47,208 nt of DNA from IMG/VR virus record IMGVR_UViG_2721755498_000001. One strand, written 5' to 3'. The notes under the pieces were generated by a model. That model worked only from the letters and a program-made list of their open reading frames with translations, was not told the origin of the DNA and did no database searches. Shown in pieces: positions 514 through 46,578 of this stretch (position 1 is its first letter; each line of letters opens with the position of its first letter). The position numbers and the translations under genes are program-made. This DNA is from a virus (taxonomy: Duplodnaviria; Heunggongvirae; Uroviricota; Caudoviricetes).

Positions 514-1413
514 TTATGTCTGGATGTGGTCGTCAACACATCCTCTTTTAAATACAGGCGCTTTTACCTTAGTTGGATCATCTGTTTTAAAGATTTTCAA
601 TCGTTCACTGAAGAACATTACCTCAGATCCTTTGTACCGATCTTGAGCACTGTAGTTTATTCCATATACTAATGAGGATGTCTTATACATAGCTTGGATC
701 TCAGGAGTGTTATCGTAAGAAACAATCCAAGGCGTTTTAATATTATTCTGTACGACTTTTGCAACCCTAACATGATCATCATGATCATAATGGTTGATAT
801 ATAAGCCTTTACCTTTTATGTAATAAGGTGGATCCAAATAGGTTAATGAGTTTTGTGGCAATTGAATAACTATTTTTTTTATGAAATCAATTGCATCCAT
901 GTTATATAAATCTATTCTGTGACGATTTTCTGATATTCTATGGATTCGAGAAATCAAATCACTCTTATTATAGCGAGCGTCAAGCTTCCATTTCCCTTCT
1001 TGATTTTTACCGCCAATTACACCACCTTTTAATATTCCAGAACGATTTGTTCTATTGAGAAAAAAGGTTGAGAAACCAATTGTTAAAAGATCATGGTCTT
1101 TAGGATTATTAATTATATCTTTCTGCCTAAACCATTCATCCATTGTAACTTCTGTTCTTTCAACTAAAGAACATAATTGATCTGCATGATTTAATACACT
1201 GTGCCAAAAAGCATAAACAGAAATATTAATATCATTAAGGATGATTTTTTCAGCTGCATTTAGATGTAACAGTTTCAATGCTAAACCAGCACCCCCAGCA
1301 TATGGTTCGGCATAATGTATAGGCGAAAGATTATTTTCTTCAATAATCCGAAGCATGAAATTTGCAAGCTTGCCTTTACCGCCAGGATAGCGAAGTGGGG
1401 TGTTAAAACGCAT
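514..1413 (-). CDS. Dam-family (alpha-class, D12-like) DNA N6-adenine methyltransferase
   Basis: Motifs YPGGK, EPYAGGAG, LNRTNRSG and DPPYY align with E. coli Dam WAGGK / EPFVGAGS / LNRYGYNG / DPPY; RBS AGAGGT before the ATG; visibly AT-rich region. Confidence 0.85.
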   Translation of the reverse strand: MRFNTPLRYPGGKGKLANFMLRIIEENNLSPIHYAEPYAGGAGLALKLLHLNAAEKIILNDINISVYAFWHSVLNHADQLCSLVERTEVTMDEWFRQKDIINNPKDHDLLTIGFSTFFLNRTNRSGILKGGVIGGKNQEGKWKLDARYNKSDLISRIHRISENRHRIDLYNMDAIDFIKKIVIQLPQNSLTYLDPPYYIKGKGLYINHYDHDDHVRVAKVVQNNIKTPWIVSYDNTPEIQAMYKTSSLVYGINYSAQDRYKGSEVMFFSERLKIFKTDDPTKVKAPVFKRGCVDDHIQT

Positions 1414-1492: not shown

Positions 1493-3226
1493 TTAGTTAT
1501 TTGACAGATATGATGAGATGGTAGCAGAATCGACACCATGTCCACTTATCATAATAACTTTAAGACTCTTTATTAGTTCATTCTTGAAGCTATCCGATTG
1601 CACAGGATTTTTCTCGACCCAATATCGATATGGGTTATCTTTAACTCGTCCTTTGACTTGGTCCTGAAATTGAGTCGTATGTGCAAAATCTTTAAACAGT
1701 TTTCTCACTCTCCCGCCATGATTTTTGTTAACTTTTTTATAATTATCTATAAGGATTTTTAAATCAATCGGAGCGTTACCAATCTTTAGCGTTGTAATTA
1801 TGTCTTTAGCTGTTTTCATAAAAACAGATTTTGTAAATTTATTTTTATTTTCCCAATATGCATCATCAGGTGGTAAATTATATAAAAACTCAAAAATCAT
1901 TTGATCTGGAGGTAAGGTGCTTGGAAGCAAACATAAGTTTTTTTCTTTTTTGGCTTTTTTTGCATTAGCACTGTTGTCGTGAACAACATCACCGTCTAAG
2001 ACGATCAAGCTTTTAGCTGTAAATTCTGGTATTTTTCTTGCCATTAAGTCAAGCATGGCAGAGCAGCTAATATTTATATTCCCTAATGGATTTAATATTT
2101 TATTTATTTTTCGATCTGTTATCAATTGTTTGAAAAAGTCGAAACCTTCTTTGTCTTCAAAATATACATTTGCTTTTGGAAGACAAATGTCATCATTAAT
2201 TTTTACAGTTTCAACATGTAAATCAGCGTGGATATCTGTCCATGAAAGATTATTCTTTGTTTTAATATCTCCATATGTGTCTGTAAGATATATTGTTTTA
2301 AAGCTATCACTATCTTGTTTTGAACGATTATAGATATCCTCTATTATTAATGGAGAGTGCGAGGTCATGATTATTTGCAGATCGTATTGTTTTGCTGCTT
2401 TAGTTAGAATATTAATTAACTCTAACTGTGCAGCAGGGAAAAGACCTGCATCGGCTTCATCAATTAACAATATTCCGCCATGATAATCAGAATAAGTTTC
2501 CTTCAATCTTTTAAATGAAAAAATTGCTTGGATTAATTGTCCAACATTATCTTCACCAACAGATACTGATTGGTGATCATAATTGTCACCATGGACAACC
2601 ATTGAATCGATAGTACCTTTTGTTGCTGTTACTGAGCTTCCATTGTTTTTTAGTAAGAGTTGGTTACTCATCATTCTGATTTCATCAGAATTTTCATTGA
2701 TGTACTGAACATCCCGTGTTGAGTAATTAGTCCTTAATGTAATAGGAAGAAGTCGTGCTAAGCTTAAAAAAATAACAGGATGAGTAACGTTTCTACTTTG
2801 GTTTTTTTCCGGTATTGAATCATTTCCCCTGACTACAGGCCTTGATTTATCTCTGTCACTGTAGCTGTATAAACCTAATGTTAGTTTTTCAAGATGTTTG
2901 TTCGATGCACCATCATAGACACTAATTTTGACGTCCATTGAACCAGGAACATCAAATTGTTCTGAAAGCCTAAAATGTTCGCTGAAAGCTGACTTGAAGC
3001 TGCCATTTGTTAATGTTTTATATTGTGTTAAATCAGTCTCAGGTTTTTTGGTAAAGTCCTTTGTAAAGCTAAATATTTGGGCGATAATGCCAAGAATTGT
3101 GGATTTAGATGTGCCATTTTTACCACAAATAACAGTTAGGCGAGAACCAAACTCGATGTTTATATTTTTCAGTCCGCGAAACTTCACAACATTTATATTT
3201 TTTAGTTTGGTAATTTGATTTGCCAT
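1493..3226 (-). CDS. ABC-type ATPase (OLD/GajA-like) with putative C-terminal TOPRIM nuclease domain
   Basis: Walker A GKNGTSKST, Walker B ILLIDEADAGL, H-loop TSHSP; C-terminal E...DxD pattern (YFEDKEG ... IVLDGD) typical of TOPRIM. Start taken at the internal ATG (MANQITK) with upstream GGAG; the ORF is open to 3277. AT-rich; co-oriented with int. Confidence 0.7.
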   Translation of the reverse strand: MANQITKLKNINVVKFRGLKNINIEFGSRLTVICGKNGTSKSTILGIIAQIFSFTKDFTKKPETDLTQYKTLTNGSFKSAFSEHFRLSEQFDVPGSMDVKISVYDGASNKHLEKLTLGLYSYSDRDKSRPVVRGNDSIPEKNQSRNVTHPVIFLSLARLLPITLRTNYSTRDVQYINENSDEIRMMSNQLLLKNNGSSVTATKGTIDSMVVHGDNYDHQSVSVGEDNVGQLIQAIFSFKRLKETYSDYHGGILLIDEADAGLFPAAQLELINILTKAAKQYDLQIIMTSHSPLIIEDIYNRSKQDSDSFKTIYLTDTYGDIKTKNNLSWTDIHADLHVETVKINDDICLPKANVYFEDKEGFDFFKQLITDRKINKILNPLGNINISCSAMLDLMARKIPEFTAKSLIVLDGDVVHDNSANAKKAKKEKNLCLLPSTLPPDQMIFEFLYNLPPDDAYWENKNKFTKSVFMKTAKDIITTLKIGNAPIDLKILIDNYKKVNKNHGGRVRKLFKDFAHTTQFQDQVKGRVKDNPYRYWVEKNPVQSDSFKNELIKSLKVIMISGHGVDSATISSYLSNN

Positions 3227-3250
3227 GTTTGTATCTTGCTCCGTAAAATG

Positions 3251-3267
3251 GCCACAAATTGTGGCCA
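3251..3267. promoter_or_regulatory. Perfect 17-bp palindrome between int stop and ATPase start (terminator or operator candidate)
   Basis: ggccacaaattgtggcc at 3251-3267; followed by ATTTTA on the minus strand. Confidence 0.3.
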
Positions 3268-3284
3268 ATAGTTTCATGCTTGGA

Positions 3285-4451
3285 TTATATTGTTATCTTC
3301 TTCAAGCTTGTTTGTCCATCATATTCCTTCAGATATGAGCCATAGTGCCTGAAAAGCATCTCCGGTCCTTTATGCCCCATTTGAGCTGCAAGCCAAAACA
3401 GGTTTGCTCCCCGGCTGATATGGCGGGTGGCGAATGTATGCCTAGTTTGATATGGATTTCTGTAACGAATACCTGCTTTTCGCAATGTTGGCACCCATGC
3501 TTTTTTTCTGATTGCATCAGCACTTGCCCATGGCTTATTGGTCTTTGGATCTTCAAAGACAGTAGCATCCTTCATGAATGTAAATGGCTTCTGGTTTATC
3601 AACGCCAACATTGCTTCTTCAGTCAGTTCAACTTTACGGGTACCGGCTTTTGTCTTTGTTCCTTTGATAACTCCGACAACACTTGCGCTCTGAACATGGG
3701 CTGTTTTTCCAACAAAGTCGATATCATGCCATCGTAGGGCACATAATTCAGAACTACGCAGGCCTGTATGTATGGCGAACCGGAACAGATTTTCCCATTG
3801 TTTGTTTCCGGCTGCTGCTAGTAATGCATCAACTTCTGCTGGTGATAGCGGATCAACCACATAGCTGCTTTCTGCTTCTGACTTATCACTTTGGTAGCGC
3901 GAAGCTGTTACTAACGATACGGGGTTAATTTGAAGTACCCCATCGGTCACGGCTTCATCAAGTGCTGACCGTAGGAAAGATAACTGGTTGCGAATGGTTT
4001 TTAAGGTTGTTTTCTGGCTTTGAATCCACGCTTTCAGGGTTGCTGGTGTTAATTCACTTGCAGGGCAAATGTGAAGTGAGGCTAACGCACTACGGCATTT
4101 TTTATAGCCACCAATCGTAGAGGGTGAAAGTTTTCTTGTTTCGCAGATTTCAAGATATTCGTCCAGGTACATCTTTACCGTTTTGCCTGCAGCAGCATTA
4201 CCAAAAATTTTCAAACGAGCAGAACGGGGAAAATATTCTGCATAAATGAATGTTCCCCTTTCGATCTTATTATGGATTTCGCCGAGTGTACGCTCGGCGT
4301 ATTTAATGTTCTTTGGTGTTACTTCCAGATTGGAAAGCGGCTCACGACATCTAACTCCTTTGTAGGTGAAAGTTATATTGATCGTTTCTCCCTGGCGGTG
4401 TTTCCTGATTGTTACGCCGCGCGGTAGTTTGAGCAGTTTTGTCTGGCCCAT
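3285..4451 (-). CDS. int: Phage integrase, tyrosine recombinase
   Basis: 388 aa; C-terminal catalytic region with R...H..R...Y context (HTFATRHISRGANLFWLAAQMGHKGPEMLFRHYGSY); next to xis and the att end. Confidence 0.9.
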   Translation of the reverse strand: MGQTKLLKLPRGVTIRKHRQGETINITFTYKGVRCREPLSNLEVTPKNIKYAERTLGEIHNKIERGTFIYAEYFPRSARLKIFGNAAAGKTVKMYLDEYLEICETRKLSPSTIGGYKKCRSALASLHICPASELTPATLKAWIQSQKTTLKTIRNQLSFLRSALDEAVTDGVLQINPVSLVTASRYQSDKSEAESSYVVDPLSPAEVDALLAAAGNKQWENLFRFAIHTGLRSSELCALRWHDIDFVGKTAHVQSASVVGVIKGTKTKAGTRKVELTEEAMLALINQKPFTFMKDATVFEDPKTNKPWASADAIRKKAWVPTLRKAGIRYRNPYQTRHTFATRHISRGANLFWLAAQMGHKGPEMLFRHYGSYLKEYDGQTSLKKITI

Positions 4452-4657
4452 TTTGCAACCTCACTAAGATCAATCCACCTCTCCTTAACGCCTTCAACCT
4501 TTAAAACCTGAACACCTTCACGCCAAACACCGCGCTGTACACGTTTGTTTATTGCTTCAGGAGTTTCGCCAGTTTCTTTGCAATAAGTTGAGATAGGAAC
4601 ACAATCGAGGTTCAGCATACGTTTCTCCATTATCCCGTCTGCACACGGGAGCAACAT
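4412..4657 (-). CDS. xis: Excisionase-like DNA-binding protein (start may be an internal ATG)
   Basis: Small ORF overlapping the int start by about 40 nt; winged-helix-like KERWIDLSEVAKWAR segment; classic xis-int overlap arrangement. Confidence 0.55.
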   Translation of the reverse strand: MLLPCADGIMEKRMLNLDCVPISTYCKETGETPEAINKRVQRGVWREGVQVLKVEGVKERWIDLSEVAKWARQNCSNYRAA

Positions 4658-4659
4658 TA

Positions 4660-5550
4660 TTAACGAATAGTGTCGTTACTTTGAAGTACAGCAAATGCCA
4701 TTAATACTTCTAAAGTATATCTTCTATAAAATTTAACAAAACCAACATAGAAAACATAGACGAAGAAAAAGCTAAGCATTATTGAAAGTAAACTATAAAG
4801 ATAATCACTATGAGTACATAATCGATAAATAAAGGTTGGAACTGATACCCAAAATGAAATTATAAAGATTAAACATATGTTTCTGCAAAAACCATATAAT
4901 GCAACATAGTTTTGAATTTTTGTTTGATGTTGTTTTGAAAACTCATAAACATAATGATATGCCAATCTGAAGAGATCATCATCAAGTCCGTTTTTATCTT
5001 GTAATAATTGGCGATTTGTTATGAACTTTTTCTCATAACCTTCTTTGATCATTAACCATGTTGTATTAGCTAAATGAAATGGTAGAGATTGAGAATAACA
5101 TAGTTTTTGTGTTATAAAATCCCATAGTATTATTGGACATAATACGCATTTGATTATGCGATTCTTTATTTTTGTTTTTTTATCAGCGCTTCTCTCATCG
5201 CATGATGGGCTACAAATGCTTTCTGAGGTATCTATCAATTTTTTAAATAGATATTTGGAAGGATATCCTAATTCTTTATTCATGTATTTTTCGATAAAAA
5301 ATGCTGACGTGATAGAAATAAAATGTCCAGCTATATAAGATATAATAACTATTGAAGCGTAGTTCAAAATGCCAAAGATTTGACTTTGACCTCTGAGCAA
5401 TTCACTTAAGTCAATAACAATATCTAGATCGAATGTCAAACCACAGAAATACATTAATAGGATAAAAAAACCACCTGGTATTAAATATCCAAGAAAGTCA
5501 TAGAATGAGAATGGATTTTGATTCATTGTTGCTCTCCAATAATTTTTCAA
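4660..5550 (-). CDS. Multi-pass membrane protein of unknown function (AT-rich moron)
   Basis: 296 aa with hydrophobic helices at both ends and a soluble middle; strongly AT-rich DNA unlike the flanking phage genes. Confidence 0.55.
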   Translation of the reverse strand: MKNYWRATMNQNPFSFYDFLGYLIPGGFFILLMYFCGLTFDLDIVIDLSELLRGQSQIFGILNYASIVIISYIAGHFISITSAFFIEKYMNKELGYPSKYLFKKLIDTSESICSPSCDERSADKKTKIKNRIIKCVLCPIILWDFITQKLCYSQSLPFHLANTTWLMIKEGYEKKFITNRQLLQDKNGLDDDLFRLAYHYVYEFSKQHQTKIQNYVALYGFCRNICLIFIISFWVSVPTFIYRLCTHSDYLYSLLSIMLSFFFVYVFYVGFVKFYRRYTLEVLMAFAVLQSNDTIR

Positions 5551-5634
5551 TTTGTAATATAACCTATATCTATATGTTAATAAATTACTTATATGTTCTT
5601 TTATGGCAGAGTTTGAATTCGTACGTGCTGATTT

Positions 5635-6186
5635 TTACGACTCAGTTAACTCTTTAAAGCGTTCCATAAACATCCCATAGGTATGGCCTGGCGACAGTGG
5701 AATAACTTTGAACATCTCTGTTGCCGGGATACCTTCCAGTACGGGCCAGAAAGAGCCATCATCAAGCCCGAGATCGCGGCGTTCGGTTGCCAGCATGATG
5801 AGATCGGCATATTTCACGGGCGTACTCATAACCGGGGGTAACCCGTATTTCTCACGGATTACGGCGTCTATTTTTTCTTCCATCCGTTTATAGTCAGGAA
5901 GAAGGCGTTTCAGTGGCGCCGGGATGTCCTGGCAATACGCTTCTGTTGCATCATGCATTAACGCTTCAAAAGCAAATTCCTGCGGTACCAGCTGGCTGCA
6001 AAGCACCGCATGTTGGGCGACGCTGTAGAAATGTGAAAGATGTCCTGCAAAGCGACAGATATTTGAAAGAGAAACCGCGATATCGTTAATAACGATGTCG
6101 TCTTTATTTATCCTGTCATAATAAAAATGCTTCCCGGAAAAAGTTTTAATAAATGACATTTTGTTCTCCACGTATATGCGCTGCAC
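5635..6186 (-). CDS. HD-domain phosphohydrolase-like protein, resembling CPS-53 YfdR
   Basis: 183 aa with H...HD...D pattern (FAGHLSHFY...LMHDATEAYCQD); assignment from memory of the YfdR family. Confidence 0.6.
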   Translation of the reverse strand: MQRIYVENKMSFIKTFSGKHFYYDRINKDDIVINDIAVSLSNICRFAGHLSHFYSVAQHAVLCSQLVPQEFAFEALMHDATEAYCQDIPAPLKRLLPDYKRMEEKIDAVIREKYGLPPVMSTPVKYADLIMLATERRDLGLDDGSFWPVLEGIPATEMFKVIPLSPGHTYGMFMERFKELTES

Positions 6187-8241: not shown

Positions 8242-8934
8242 TTAATTGTGTCGCTTAAGGGTTTGTGACTGGCTGATTAAGACCTTTCCAAAGACCATAA
8301 ACCGGTGTTCATTTTCGCTGGTAATTCCCCATTCACGGTAAATCTGGTTATCAGAAATCACCAGTAGTTTGTCAGGTATCATTTGCAGTCGTTTGACATA
8401 AATTTTATCATCAAAACCAAATACATAGATACCATCTCCATCAAACTGATTGATACTGACATCAACGAAGATGAGATCTCCTGGCTCAATGGTTGGACAC
8501 ATACTGTCCCCACGAACGTTGATAACTTTAATGTGATTGGCTGGCCGTCCGCCAAACATCGATACAGCATTATCAGTTCTGTATTCAATGGCATGAATCA
8601 CATCAATGACATCACCGCCCTGGATAAGGCCATTTCCCGCACTGGCACTGACATCCAGCATTTCAATACGGAATACATCCTTCACCTGCGCAACATCCTC
8701 ACTAATACTGTTTTTACATACAGTATTACTTTTGACGTCTGAGGTAAAGAGATCTGCAATATCAACACCTAAGCTCCTGGCAATATTACTCAGGGCTTGT
8801 TCAGTGAATTGTTTCTGCTTACCTGTTTCCAGGCGTGAGATATTCGCCGCATCCACTCCTATTGCTTCAGCGAGATCGGCGATCTTCATGTTCTTCGCCT
8901 GGCGAAGTTGTCTGACTCGGTTTCCTATGTTCAT
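8242..8934 (-). CDS. cI: CI-like prophage repressor (HTH plus S24 LexA-like peptidase domain)
   Basis: N-terminal HTH (MKIADLAEAIGVDAANISRLETG) and C-terminal S24 region (VRGDSMCPTIEPGDLIFVD ... KRL); divergent from cro. Confidence 0.9.
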   Translation of the reverse strand: MNIGNRVRQLRQAKNMKIADLAEAIGVDAANISRLETGKQKQFTEQALSNIARSLGVDIADLFTSDVKSNTVCKNSISEDVAQVKDVFRIEMLDVSASAGNGLIQGGDVIDVIHAIEYRTDNAVSMFGGRPANHIKVINVRGDSMCPTIEPGDLIFVDVSINQFDGDGIYVFGFDDKIYVKRLQMIPDKLLVISDNQIYREWGITSENEHRFMVFGKVLISQSQTLKRHN

Positions 8935-42715: not shown

Positions 42716-43534
<819 letters not shown>

Positions 43535-43895
43535 TCATTGCAAGGGCTCACAACCAGTAGTGTTGAGAAAACCATCGGAGAAATGAGGCTAAGCCTTTGA
43601 ATTTACATAGTACAAAAAAGATACTTTTCCTCATAATGTGAGCTAATTTTATGTTTCGTTTGATGATTGGACCGGTCTCGAAAACCGTAGACACATAGTA
43701 TGCGTTAATTTATGAACAAACTACTTGTCTGCTGTTTTTCTGTCATTAGTCGTATATAGAATGATTCTCTATGCCTAACAAAGCATCACCAGTGCTAGAT
43801 TACGTTGTAGTCACTGTTTAAATATCCAGATAAAACATTTCCTTCTGGGTTGAATGAGTGATAAAGTTTCACCCATTAGACCCCTTGGAGGAATT

Positions 43896-45329
43896 ATGTC
43901 TGAATTTGAAGTGTTGGCACAGCATCTGCTGAAGGAAGCCGAGGCGGAAGAAAAGCTGCGACAGGAAAATGATAAAAAGCTTATCGAGAAAGTGCTGGAA
44001 ATCTATGATCAGAAGTATGTGGCTGAATTACTGAGAAAAGTCGGAAAAAATGAGTGGAGCCGTGAAACCATTAACCGCTGGATTAATGGCAAGTGTTTAC
44101 CAAAATCGTTGACTTCAGTAGAAGAGTCTCTTCTGCGTAAGATGCTACCAGAACCACCTGCAAACCATCCGGAATATGCTTTCCGCTTCATTGACTTATT
44201 TGCTGGAATTGGAGGGATACGGAAAGGTTTTGAGGCCATTGGAGGCCAGTGTGTTTTTACCAGTGAATGGAATAAAGATGCTGTGCGTACATACAAGGCC
44301 AACTGGTTTAACGATGAACAGGTGCATAAATTCAATCTCGATATTCGGGAAGTCACGCTGAGTGATAAAACCGATGTATTGGAAACGGATGCTTATGCAT
44401 ATATTGATGAGCATGTGCCGGATCATGATGTGCTTCTTGCGGGGTTCCCGTGCCAGCCATTTAGCCTTGCTGGTGTTAGTAAGAAAAACTCACTTGGTCG
44501 TGCGCATGGTTTTGAATGTGAAGCACAAGGAACACTTTTTTTTGACGTGGCACGTATTATACGAGCAAAAAAACCGGCAATTTTTGTGCTGGAAAATGTC
44601 AAAAATCTGAAGAGCCATGATAAGGGTAAAACTTTCAAAGTCATTATGGAGACCCTTGACGAGCTGGGCTACGAAGTTGCCGATGCTGCAGAAATGGGAA
44701 AAAACGATCCAAAGATTATCGATGGGAAGCATTTTTTGCCTCAGCATCGTGAACGCATTGTTCTGGTCGGATTTAGACGAGATCTGAATATTCACAAGGG
44801 GTTTACCTTGCGTGATATCAGTCGTTTTTATCCGGAACACCGCCCATCATTTGGTGAATTGCTGGAGCCTGTAGTCGACAGTAAATATATACTTACGCCA
44901 AAACTATGGGAGTACCTTTATAACTACGCCAAAAAGCATGCAGCCAAGGGGAATGGTTTTGGCTTTGGGTTGGTCAATCCTGAGAATAAGGAAAGCATTG
45001 CACGCACACTTTCTGCCAGATATCACAAAGACGGATCAGAAATTCTTATTGATCGTGGTTGGGATATGGCAACGGGAGAGGCTGACTTTATGAATGAGAG
45101 TAATCAGGCTCGTCGACCACGCAGGCTGACTCCCCGAGAGTGCGCACGCCTTATGGGATTTGAAAAACCTGGAGGGAAACCATTCCGTATTCCGGTTTCA
45201 GATACTCAGTCATATCGGCAGTTCGGTAACTCAGTTGTGGTGCCAGTATTTGAAGCTGTTGCCAGACTTCTGGAACCCTATATCCTCAAAGCTGTTTCTG
45301 CTGATGCTGGTAAGACTGGGCAGCCTTGA
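43896..45329 (+). CDS. DNA cytosine-5 methyltransferase, Dcm / M.EcoRII-like
   Basis: Motif [16 protein letters not shown], motif [10 protein letters not shown], motif VI ENVKNL; N-terminal region close to E. coli Dcm; 477 aa from the RBS-supported ATG, the length recalled for M.EcoRII. Confidence 0.9.
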
Positions 45330-45363: not shown

Positions 45364-46578
45364 CTATGATAGTTCAGCGTAAAGCTCTATCAGCTCAGTA
45401 ATGAATGCTCCGAGCGTTATTAATTCTTCTCTAACTGCTTCTGGGTATTTTTTATGTAAAGTTGATGGTACAACGAGTCTGACACCCGCATCTTTCATTT
45501 CTCGGTATTGTGCTGAAGAAACACCTTCTTGCAGTGTAAATAAATGTACCTGATGGATTTTATCTGCTTCATTCAGTATCTGACGCCAGCGATCTTTGCA
45601 GGTGGTCTTTACTGCCAGCATACGTAAGTTTTCTACAGGAAATTCAACGTTATGATATGCCTCTGCTGAAGGAAACAGGAAATCTGGTTTTTTATTACCT
45701 TCAGTAACTGCCTGAGTGGAGAAATGCCGTAGTCCGTGCTCGATAAAAAGCTTCTCTAGGTGAAGTTCAAGTGATTTGCCTGCCCTTGATTTACGTCGAT
45801 TACTGACAGAGTTGGCTAATGCAATAAACTCATCTACAGAATCGAATCCTTTCTTAATAATATCAAGAACATGTAATTCCTCGACGAGTAGAAAAATATC
45901 ATACTCGACACGCCGACGGTCAATCAGTTGCTCATCTGGATCCTTGGAGTTTTTAGCATAATGGCCAGCAGCATATTGAATAATTTCGTTTCCAGAAGGA
46001 AAACGCTTCTTCCAGTCTTCAGGAATAACATATTTATGATTTACTGGAGTTTGCTGAAGAGACAATCCGCCCAAAATTTGTCCGGCAGGGCCGGAAATTA
46101 GGGTTCCAGGTATGATTTCGCCAATAGCAGACTCGATGATATCCTCTTCATCGGGATTGACGCAGACCCATATATCTACCTCGGAACAGTCAGTGTTCTG
46201 TTCGTTTAACCTGAAAGCAAGAATTGTGAGGGCTCCTGTATTTTCAGGGTTCTGTAATGGACTTCCTCTCCCCCAGCGCGTAATTCTTTTTTCGTTTCGG
46301 GTCTTACCAAAATAACGGTTGTTGTAATAAATTGCGCGTGCTTGGGTATCAGGGCAATCATGGGATGATACATGCGCAGTAAGGAAGACTGAAGGGTTCA
46401 GTTCGCGAGTATGATTGATAGATGGAAAAAGCTTTTCAACGATATTTGAGGGGATATAAAGTCCGACCTGATGGCCACCTGTTGCGCCTGTGTCGTTTGC
46501 AGAAAGGCGTTTGATGTAGATAAAGTAATTCCCGCTTGCGATATCAAGCAGCCAGTTATGAAAAACCGACATATACAT
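45364..46578 (-). CDS. Type IIE restriction endonuclease, EcoRII-like
   Basis: 404 aa, the length recalled for R.EcoRII; convergent with a Dcm-like methyltransferase; identity from memory, not search-confirmed. Confidence 0.65.
   Translation of the reverse strand: MYMSVFHNWLLDIASGNYFIYIKRLSANDTGATGGHQVGLYIPSNIVEKLFPSINHTRELNPSVFLTAHVSSHDCPDTQARAIYYNNRYFGKTRNEKRITRWGRGSPLQNPENTGALTILAFRLNEQNTDCSEVDIWVCVNPDEEDIIESAIGEIIPGTLISGPAGQILGGLSLQQTPVNHKYVIPEDWKKRFPSGNEIIQYAAGHYAKNSKDPDEQLIDRRRVEYDIFLLVEELHVLDIIKKGFDSVDEFIALANSVSNRRKSRAGKSLELHLEKLFIEHGLRHFSTQAVTEGNKKPDFLFPSAEAYHNVEFPVENLRMLAVKTTCKDRWRQILNEADKIHQVHLFTLQEGVSSAQYREMKDAGVRLVVPSTLHKKYPEAVREELITLGAFITELIELYAELS

Follow-up and report, generated by a model that had tools for sequence, protein, structure and literature searches.

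A standalone Csx27-related membrane protein encoded between yfdR and xis in a lambdoid prophage of Escherichia coli

Locus and gene

The stretch of DNA analysed here, referred to as the window, comprises the 47,208 nucleotides (nt) of virus record IMGVR_UViG_2721755498_000001, a lambdoid prophage of Escherichia coli. The element under study is a single AT-rich gene on its minus strand whose product, a protein of 288 amino acids (aa), is predicted to span the membrane four times and, on profile comparison, is homologous to Csx27, an accessory protein of CRISPR systems. The original prediction, made from the sequence letters, had described a 296-aa multi-pass membrane protein with a soluble centre at 4660-5550 and had suggested that its position is typical of superinfection-exclusion or abortive-infection (Abi) morons.

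An uninterrupted open reading frame (ORF) does occupy 4660-5550 on the minus strand, where the ORF listing of the window begins it at a TTG codon to give 296 aa, but this start lies 8 codons too far upstream. The ATG at 5526 is almost certainly the true start, which makes the protein 288 aa long (4660-5526, minus strand), because the sequence reads GGAG at 5537-5534, 7 nt 5' of this ATG; the 100% identical copy in strain UTI89 is an 867-nt coding sequence (CDS) in RefSeq (WP_001075212.1); the PHROG 12528 profile is matched over its full length (expectation value E 8.9e-174, residues 9-296 of the 296-aa ORF against positions 1-288 of 288); and all homologues in the family alignment begin with M-x-QNPFS. 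PHROG 12528 is a phage protein family with no assigned function, and this membership, together with database entries as a hypothetical protein, is what is already known of the protein.

The gene has a GC content of 28.4% and a third-codon-position GC content (GC3) of 21%. In 300-nt segments the GC content is 26-30% in the gene, 42-46% over xis and int and 43-51% over yfdR, so that the sharply AT-rich patch noted earlier is borne out (28.4% vs 42-51% in the flanks). The neighbour 3' of the gene is an excisionase (phrog_2917, E 8e-45) with its start codon at 4618, followed by an integrase ORF at 3285-4451. On the 5' side lies a YfdR-like HD phosphohydrolase (phrog_318, E 4e-108), then YfdQ (DUF2303) and, farther out, a cI-like repressor at 8242-8934. 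The two PHROG matches agree with the neighbours named by the original prediction, xis and a yfdR-like gene, and the gene lies in the distal part of the early-left operon. The gene and the features assigned to it, including predicted transmembrane (TM) helices, are as follows:

4660-5526, minus strand: CDS of 288 aa plus TAA stop codon (4662-4660), encoding the predicted standalone four-helix membrane protein of the Csx27 superfamily
5527-5634, minus strand: AT-rich spacer of 108 nt from the yfdR stop codon to the start codon, containing GGAG and weak promoter-like matches
5431-5499, minus strand: predicted TM helix 1 (aa 10-32), after the invariant NPFSxYDFLGYxIPG (counterpart in Csx27: FSxYDxLxxLxPG)
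5293-5373, minus strand: predicted TM helix 2 (aa 52-78), with conserved Y64, G67, H68 and S74, and E79 at its cytoplasmic end
4909-5292, minus strand: predicted central cytoplasmic helical domain (aa 79-206), with motifs GYPSKYLL, LLPI (invariant P131) and FRxxYHYxxExxxxHxxKxQN
4822-4908, minus strand: predicted TM helix 3 (aa 207-235), beginning with the conserved YVALYGFxR (invariant R215)
4732-4800, minus strand: predicted TM helix 4 (aa 243-265), from hydropathy and the AlphaFold model
4663-4731, minus strand: predicted C-terminal cytoplasmic helix (aa 266-288), conserved KFYRRxTLExLMA (invariant K265 and E273)

Topology and structure model

Hydropathy analysis resolves four hydrophobic segments at approximately aa 10-32, 52-78, 207-235 and 243-265. 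Lysine and arginine residues (K/R) are concentrated in the centre of the protein, with 21 in the 128 residues of aa 79-206 and 1 and 0 in the two short loops, and the protein is on this account predicted to adopt an N-in/C-in topology in which both termini and the central domain are cytoplasmic. An AlphaFold2 model built with an 82-member family alignment is all-helical and consistent with the four-helix topology (predicted local distance difference test score 89.3, predicted TM-score 0.88). Its long helices span residues 8-27, 45-86, 198-237 and 243-287, and its cytoplasmic domain holds a hydrophobic helix-kink-helix with the invariant P131; a linker in this domain at approximately aa 100-110 is modelled with low confidence and varies between alleles. 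The earlier description of a multi-pass protein with a soluble centre thus holds on all three grounds (hydrophobic segments, K/R-rich centre and model), and the topology prediction called for at that time returns four TM helices with N-in/C-in orientation.

Neither a Foldseek search of the model against PDB and BFVD (nothing below E 0.3) nor a sequence-profile search of PDB (no match at E <= 1) identified a structural relative. The order of helices 1-2, large cytoplasmic domain and helices 3-4 in about 290 aa is shared with MotA. Fold similarity to MotA, PomA or ExbB is at noise level (Foldseek probability <= 0.18, TM-score <= 0.24), and the gene differs from motA and exbB in having no MotB- or ExbD-like partner. 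The 2 + 2 topology in common with MotA is a resemblance and no sign of membership among the stators.

Relationship to Csx27

The protein matches the PADLOC model for Csx27 weakly (E 1.4e-5), and the same model is matched by 59 of the 82 family members in the alignment (best E 2.2e-10). A second model tied to type VI-B systems, tm_4, is matched by 17 of the 82 members, and the NCBIfam model CAS_Csx27 (NF040557) by 11, all below its cut-off (best E 4.5e-6); the protein encoded in the window itself gives no match to NF040557 at E <= 0.01. In a control for composition, 0 of 50 reversed family sequences match either PADLOC Csx27 or NCBIfam CAS_Csx27.

The reciprocal comparison used metagenomic loci retrieved with a direct-repeat pattern modelled on the Cas13b repeats of type VI-B systems. 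This pattern recovered at least 120 loci, most of those listed carrying arrays with a 66-nt period, and the test set of 120 contains 739 ORFs of at least 100 aa. Searched with a hidden Markov model (HMM) of the family, these ORFs yield as sole matches 10 proteins that measure 206-259 aa and contain 3-4 hydrophobic segments (best E 3.6e-9). A further profile search of the repeat-pattern loci added two, giving 12 Csx27 proteins, 10 of which adjoin ORFs of 1,119-1,213 aa, the size of Cas13b; the loci of the other two are too short to contain such an ORF. The ten proteins that were scanned score 102-209 bits on the curated Csx27 equivalog model, for which the cut-off is 65. One metagenomic locus, L107, carries two Cas13b-sized ORFs.

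Alignment of the 82-member profile with ten Csx27 sequences by hhalign gives a probability of 96.3% (E 1.5e-9, 158 columns) and extends from the N-terminal motif up to and including helix 3. Three motifs can be matched by eye as colinear between the family and Csx27: FSxYDFLGYxIPG with FSLYDLLSFLLPG, FRxxYHYxxE..K.QNYVALYGFxR with FDxAYYYLEY..K..AFQSFYFFFRN, and KFYRR with FYRxK. Because the matches are family-wide, the reversed control is clean, the reciprocal HMM matches are specific to Csx27 and hhalign agrees, sequence comparison places the protein and its family as homologues of Csx27 and the family as its sister group.

Both groups share two plus two predicted TM helices around a cytoplasmic loop, a helix 2 containing G and H, the pattern (F)D/RxxYxYxxE...K..Q(N/S)(Y/F)...FxRN before helix 3 and (F)YRx(K/R) following helix 4. 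They differ in length (288 aa vs ~206-259 aa) and in the cytoplasmic domain, which is larger by ~80 aa in the protein of the window and has its own motifs, GYPSKYLL and LLPI. They also differ in context: the gene is flanked by yfdR on one side and xis and int on the other, neither cas13b nor a CRISPR array lies there, and it is carried by prophages of Enterobacteriaceae, which are not known to have a type VI-B system. Across 80 family loci there was no multi-repeat array and no recurrent Cas13b-sized neighbour, the repeats found being short three-copy direct repeats at two of the loci. Since the protein falls below the cut-off, no cas13b gene or CRISPR array is nearby and the cytoplasmic domain is enlarged with motifs of its own, it is classified by sequence as a relative of Csx27 and not as Csx27 proper.

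Csx27 is an accessory protein of type VI-B1 systems that represses Cas13b interference in E. coli (10.1101/092577). Comparative-genomics work of 2019, as cited in PMC7642515 and PMC8209922, reportedly places it in a wider four-helix membrane family linked to DNA uptake or modification. Neither WP_001075212 nor the term 'Csx27-like' has a match in the searchable literature, and the accession is absent from the DefensePredictor supplements. Makarova et al. 2019 (FEMS Microbiol Lett 366:fnz088) reportedly describe the Csx27 family outside CRISPR loci, in the context of competence genes, ubiquitin-system proteins, WYL-HTH proteins and DNA-modification genes, and are said to predict a role in the passage of nucleic acid through the membrane. 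At positions +/-1 and +/-2 of the family genes examined here, no competence, ubiquitin-system, WYL or DNA-modification domain is recurrent. As far as the searchable literature goes, the connection with Csx27, the architecture as a standalone gene and the pattern of positions described below appear new, with the proviso that Makarova et al. 2019 may include this subfamily.

Family size, conservation and selection

A word-indexed search returned 593 homologues, all of them listed as 'hypothetical protein' and lacking any Pfam domain; for the protein of the window, neither Pfam nor NCBIfam provides a family. When 1.84 billion cluster representatives were searched exhaustively with HMMER, 659 clusters (at 50% identity) matched at E <= 1e-3, and tightening the threshold to E <= 1e-10 left 369; almost all matches are full length, at 265-310 aa. 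The taxa represented include Gamma-, Beta- and Deltaproteobacteria, Bacteroidota, Firmicutes, Chloroflexi, Acidobacteria, Gemmatimonadota, Spirochaetes and others. Across the 82 diverse members, F6, D10, Y14, G18, Y64, G67, E79, P131, R215, K265 and E273 are invariant. Conservation falls into five motif blocks (QNPFSxYDFLGYLIPG, GHxLSxxSSxTIE, GYPSKYLL, FRxxYHYxxExxxxHxxKxQNYVALYGFxR and KFYRRFTLExLMA), which sit close to the cytoplasmic helix ends or right at them. When the flanking ORFs, up to four per side, were clustered all against all, no conserved partner emerged, and no neighbour is common to more than 3 of 80 genome loci.

The ratio of nonsynonymous to synonymous substitution rates (dN/dS) is 0.23 relative to an E. 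coli allele with 78% protein identity, which indicates that the gene is under purifying selection. All enteric alleles are low in GC (28-32%). When 4660-5700 of the window is compared with the locus carrying the 78% allele (L084 5870-6870), the upstream spacer and the first ~150 nt of the gene are 100% identical, and past that point identity is uneven, at 40-90% per 50 nt. Changes are concentrated at aa 95-130, 168-181 and 228-250, the last of these reaching from the end of helix 3 across the outer loop into the beginning of helix 4. The identical 5' part and the uneven divergence beyond it suggest that recombination has occurred within the gene.

Four members of the family also match the PADLOC model PDC-M48A weakly (E ~7e-4). 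This candidate defence system could contain another branch of the same membrane superfamily.

Genomic position and cargo status

Among 5,426 complete E. coli genomes the gene is present in 204 (3.8%), in a single copy each, and 175 of the copies are at least 99% identical; the copy in DSM 30083 (= ATCC 11775) is 100% identical. In UTI89 it likewise lies between xis and yfdR, and the cargo past the integrase differs. The related phages PhiR40_1 and Stx2a_1447, which do not have the gene, carry ea22/eaE-type genes in the same slot. The gene is accordingly horizontally acquired accessory cargo and not a core phage function. Nor does it resemble a housekeeping membrane protein of the phage, given its 3.8% occurrence and the distance to the lysis-like ORFs, which, by ORF sizes and order only, lie at ~17.7-18.6 kb.

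The 78% allele, carried by a prophage near zur/dinF/lexA, occupies the same place, and the xis-like gene beside it is a different one (PF11112). It is intact on more than 1,000 contigs, and no integrase is called between the PF11112 gene and the host genes. In Enterobacter and Klebsiella prophages, homologues with 48-52% identity lie directly upstream of a DUF4224-type or other small ORF and an integrase. IMG/VR contains 43 contigs in which an integrase starts 200-285 nt downstream of a homologue on the same strand; these integrases form six clusters at 60% identity, some pairs being only 22-27% identical. In lambdoid prophages the gene is always directly upstream of xis-int.

P2-like prophages have a homologue (42% identity by tblastn, 48% by HMMER) between the portal gene gpQ and the replication gene gpA, the order being a DUF4760 protein, the homologue and then StbB/ParM. 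The gpQ-gpA interval is the P2 hotspot for old/tin and other validated defence systems (Rousset et al., PMC9122126). The table of that study lists a matching five-gene arrangement at least 160 times, outside the systems assayed there and with the identity of the accession unconfirmed (PMC9122126). The 165-aa DUF4760 protein is always 39 nt upstream of the homologue in these prophages (e.g. L002 4464-5843; L098-L100), and the two may constitute a two-gene unit; no DUF4760 gene is present near the copy in the window or in lambdoid contexts.

At positions +/-1 and +/-2, distant homologues are accompanied by integrases, type I restriction-modification (R-M) genes, a cyclase of the cyclic-oligonucleotide-based antiphage signalling system (CBASS), Old, AbiL, patatins and AAA_21 ATPases, the defence genes being individual cases. 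In Serratia proteamaculans, the gene directly 3' of the homologue (L004 8917-10005) matches the PADLOC candidate-defence model PDC-M68A as well as models of CBASS-type endonuclease effectors (E 1e-28 to 1e-22).

Expression and regulatory signals

The orientation of the gene is shared by yfdP, yfdQ, yfdR, xis and int. A promoter scan of the 108-nt spacer found none, and a terminator scan found none flanking the gene toward either yfdR or xis. The best promoter match in the spacer by eye is TTTATT-17-TATATT (8/12), and the Enterobacter version has a perfect TATAAT ~45 nt 5' of the start codon. Given that the spacer holds no convincing promoter and that neither yfdR nor xis is set apart from the gene by a terminator, transcription running through from the early-left operon is judged at least as likely as separate expression in the lysogen. 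An Rfam scan of 4300-5800 produced no match.

Proposed function and alternatives

We tentatively favour, at somewhat less than an even chance, the reading that the protein works at the cytoplasmic membrane as a single-gene factor for exclusion or defence, either by interfering with the entry of nucleic acid or as a gated conduit. This role is proposed because of the hotspot positions, the retention of the gene in an integrase-less prophage, the other defence cargo of the prophage and the CRISPR-accessory relative. Under such a model, the four-helix bundle, probably oligomeric, would itself be a conduit or would gate one. Sensing or gating would take place at the cytoplasmic face and involve D10, H68, E79, H191, E195, H200, K203, N206, R215, K265 and E273, and the outcome would be that entry of incoming nucleic acid is disturbed.

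Several points weigh against this proposal. The searchable literature contains no phenotype for the protein or its family, and Csx27, for which no mechanism is established, represses rather than enhances Cas13b interference. Known superinfection-exclusion and Abi membrane proteins have a narrow taxonomic range, and the exclusion proteins evolve fast, whereas this family has residues that are invariant across phyla and lie on the cytoplasmic side; the periplasmic loops comprise only ~17 and 8 residues. The gene may be silent in the lysogen, since no promoter of its own was detected and it is oriented with the early-left operon. Finally, the neighbours in other phyla are heterogeneous and include glycosyltransferases, an epimerase, WecG, ribonucleotide reductase and housekeeping genes.

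Comparison with known phage-carried proteins is similarly mixed. Like RexB, P22 SieA, T4 Imm and HK97 gp15, the protein is a small multi-pass protein predicted for the inner membrane, phage-carried and non-essential. The RexB protein of lambda has four TM helices and needs RexA, and it differs in this dependence from the gene described here, which has no conserved partner. No Pfam, PHROG or PADLOC match connects the protein with SieA, SieB, Imm, Cor or gp15, and among Abi TM effectors (RexB, Cap15, CBASS and Pycsar effectors, Csx28) there is no PADLOC effector match and no linked sensor or signal gene. Csx28, the small membrane accessory of Cas13b in type VI-B2 systems, offers an example of a phage-defence component acting at the membrane, but has no detected sequence similarity to the protein. 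It has a HEPN-like domain, forms an octameric pore and enhances defence (PMC12669027). The moron site put forward by the original prediction is therefore upheld in part: the slot is variable (ea22/eaE) and a homologue occupies the P2 hotspot, but no relative among known superinfection-exclusion or Abi proteins emerged, and the remote-homology check returned instead Csx27, a distant relative that the original prediction had missed.

An abortive-infection pore is an unlikely but coherent alternative. Here the cytoplasmic domain would sense a phage cue and a four-helix oligomer would depolarise the membrane, killing or arresting the infected cell, in the manner of RexB, Csx28, Cam1 or the TM effectors of CBASS and Pycsar, though with sensor and effector combined in one polypeptide. 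The focus of conservation on the cytoplasmic face and the cytoplasmic helix ends fits this arrangement, as do the hydrophobic helix-kink-helix with invariant P131, the homologue in the P2 gpQ-gpA hotspot and the finding that, in the sister VI-B2 systems, Csx28 forms a pore in the membrane (PMC12669027). The family loci also contain no partner gene, and any sensing would therefore have to be built into the protein itself. These points are set against the lack of a match to any PADLOC TM effector model, the repression of Cas13b interference by Csx27 and the persistence of the gene, with no obvious antitoxin or regulator, on more than 1,000 contigs of an integrase-less prophage. A function other than defence, as a solute or ion channel or as an enzyme modifying lipid of the inner leaflet or the envelope, carried for fitness or lysogenic conversion, has a minor though appreciable probability. 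The D, E, H, K and R residues invariant across phyla resemble those of an active site or a binding site, the neighbours of several distant homologues are glycosyltransferase, epimerase, WecG polysaccharide or housekeeping genes, and there is no obligate defence partner; yet Pfam, NCBIfam and PDB offer no enzyme or transporter match, the fold has no neighbour, the sole detectable relative is a CRISPR accessory protein and the distribution is patchy and tied to mobile elements.

It is rather improbable that the protein serves the phage itself, being expressed from the early-left operon on infection or induction to block secondary infection, take over the host or counter its defences. The shared strand and operon with yfdP, yfdQ, yfdR, xis and int, the absence of a flanking terminator or clear promoter in the scans described above and the constant pre-xis-int placement across six integrase clusters agree with such a role, and Csx27, which down-regulates Cas13b, is itself an inhibitor of an immune effector. 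Nonetheless, bacterial chromosomes commonly carry the family at places that lack neighbouring phage genes, the gene remains intact in an integrase-less prophage, the P2-like copies lie in the old/tin hotspot that is expressed in lysogens and most related lambdoid phages do not have the gene. The probability that the ORF is non-functional or an annotation artefact of AT-rich DNA is practically negligible. In such DNA few frames on only one strand are stop-free by chance, and all database names are 'hypothetical protein', but full-length homologues in many phyla with 11 invariant residues, the dN/dS of 0.23, the confident structure model and the good ribosome-binding site rule this out. A holin or lysis role was rejected because lysis-like ORFs lie elsewhere and the gene is rare in related phages, and an O-antigen conversion enzyme because of the position, the number of helices and the lack of a family match.

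If the exclusion or defence reading is taken further, it is possible, though doubtful, that the protein is the founding characterisable member of a new and widespread single-gene membrane immunity family, a Csx27 that stands alone, and that Csx27 was derived from, or was the source of, an autonomous membrane device. Such a device would control the passage of foreign nucleic acid or the integrity of the membrane and would be carried at the xis-int junction and the P2 hotspot. Csx27 is one of few CRISPR accessory proteins with no known mechanism and has been studied only together with Cas13b. A standalone homologue native to E. coli, with a confident model, candidate functional residues and natural alleles, would make the question of Csx27 function testable in the best-developed phage-host system. 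Should it prove protective, a single-gene membrane defence family extending across phyla would be added and the yfdR-xis junction would become a site worth searching for more cargo. Should it prove otherwise, what remains is a large family that has conserved residues, lacks an assigned function and has no related fold in PDB.

Additional observations

A hairpin is present on the minus strand at 4633-4650, directly 5' of the xis ribosome-binding site, and reads TCCCGT-GTGCAG-ACGGGA followed by TGGAGAA and the start codon at 4618. It folds as predicted with an unremarkable energy (z = -1.46) and no Rfam match. Other lambdoid prophages have a hairpin at the same position (just past the homologue stop codon in L084, L090 and L003; at 1529-1542 in L096). 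Its arms vary yet stay complementary (CCGG...CCGG, ACCGG...CTGGT), its loop is constantly GTGCAG or TTGCAG and it is kept despite xis proteins of different families downstream. The hairpin also occurs in PhiR40_1, which has no membrane-protein gene, and is for that reason assigned to the xis module.

The prophage is flanked by, or carries, several defence-type genes. Just past the integrase are two AT-rich genes, one of which encodes a D12 adenine methylase that matches PADLOC PD-Lambda-5_B (E 1e-123); its partner is a 594-aa AAA_15/AAA_21 ATPase (phrog_3940) with best PADLOC matches to PtuA, Gabija or AriA-like models at ~1e-20. Judged by these matches, the pair has the look of a PD-lambda-5 variant in which the partner protein is a different one. 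According to Vassallo et al., PD-lambda-5 is reportedly a compacted R-M plus Abi system. The positions of these and the other genes are:

514-1413, minus strand, and 1493-3277, minus strand: the methylase and ATPase pair
42716-43489, minus strand: GIY-YIG protein
43854-45329: Dcm-type C5 methylase
45364-46578, minus strand: EcoRII-type restriction enzyme

At the end of the window next to the methylase and ATPase pair, nt 1-300 encode the C-terminal part of a reverse transcriptase (RVT_1, a weak match at E 3.6e-5).

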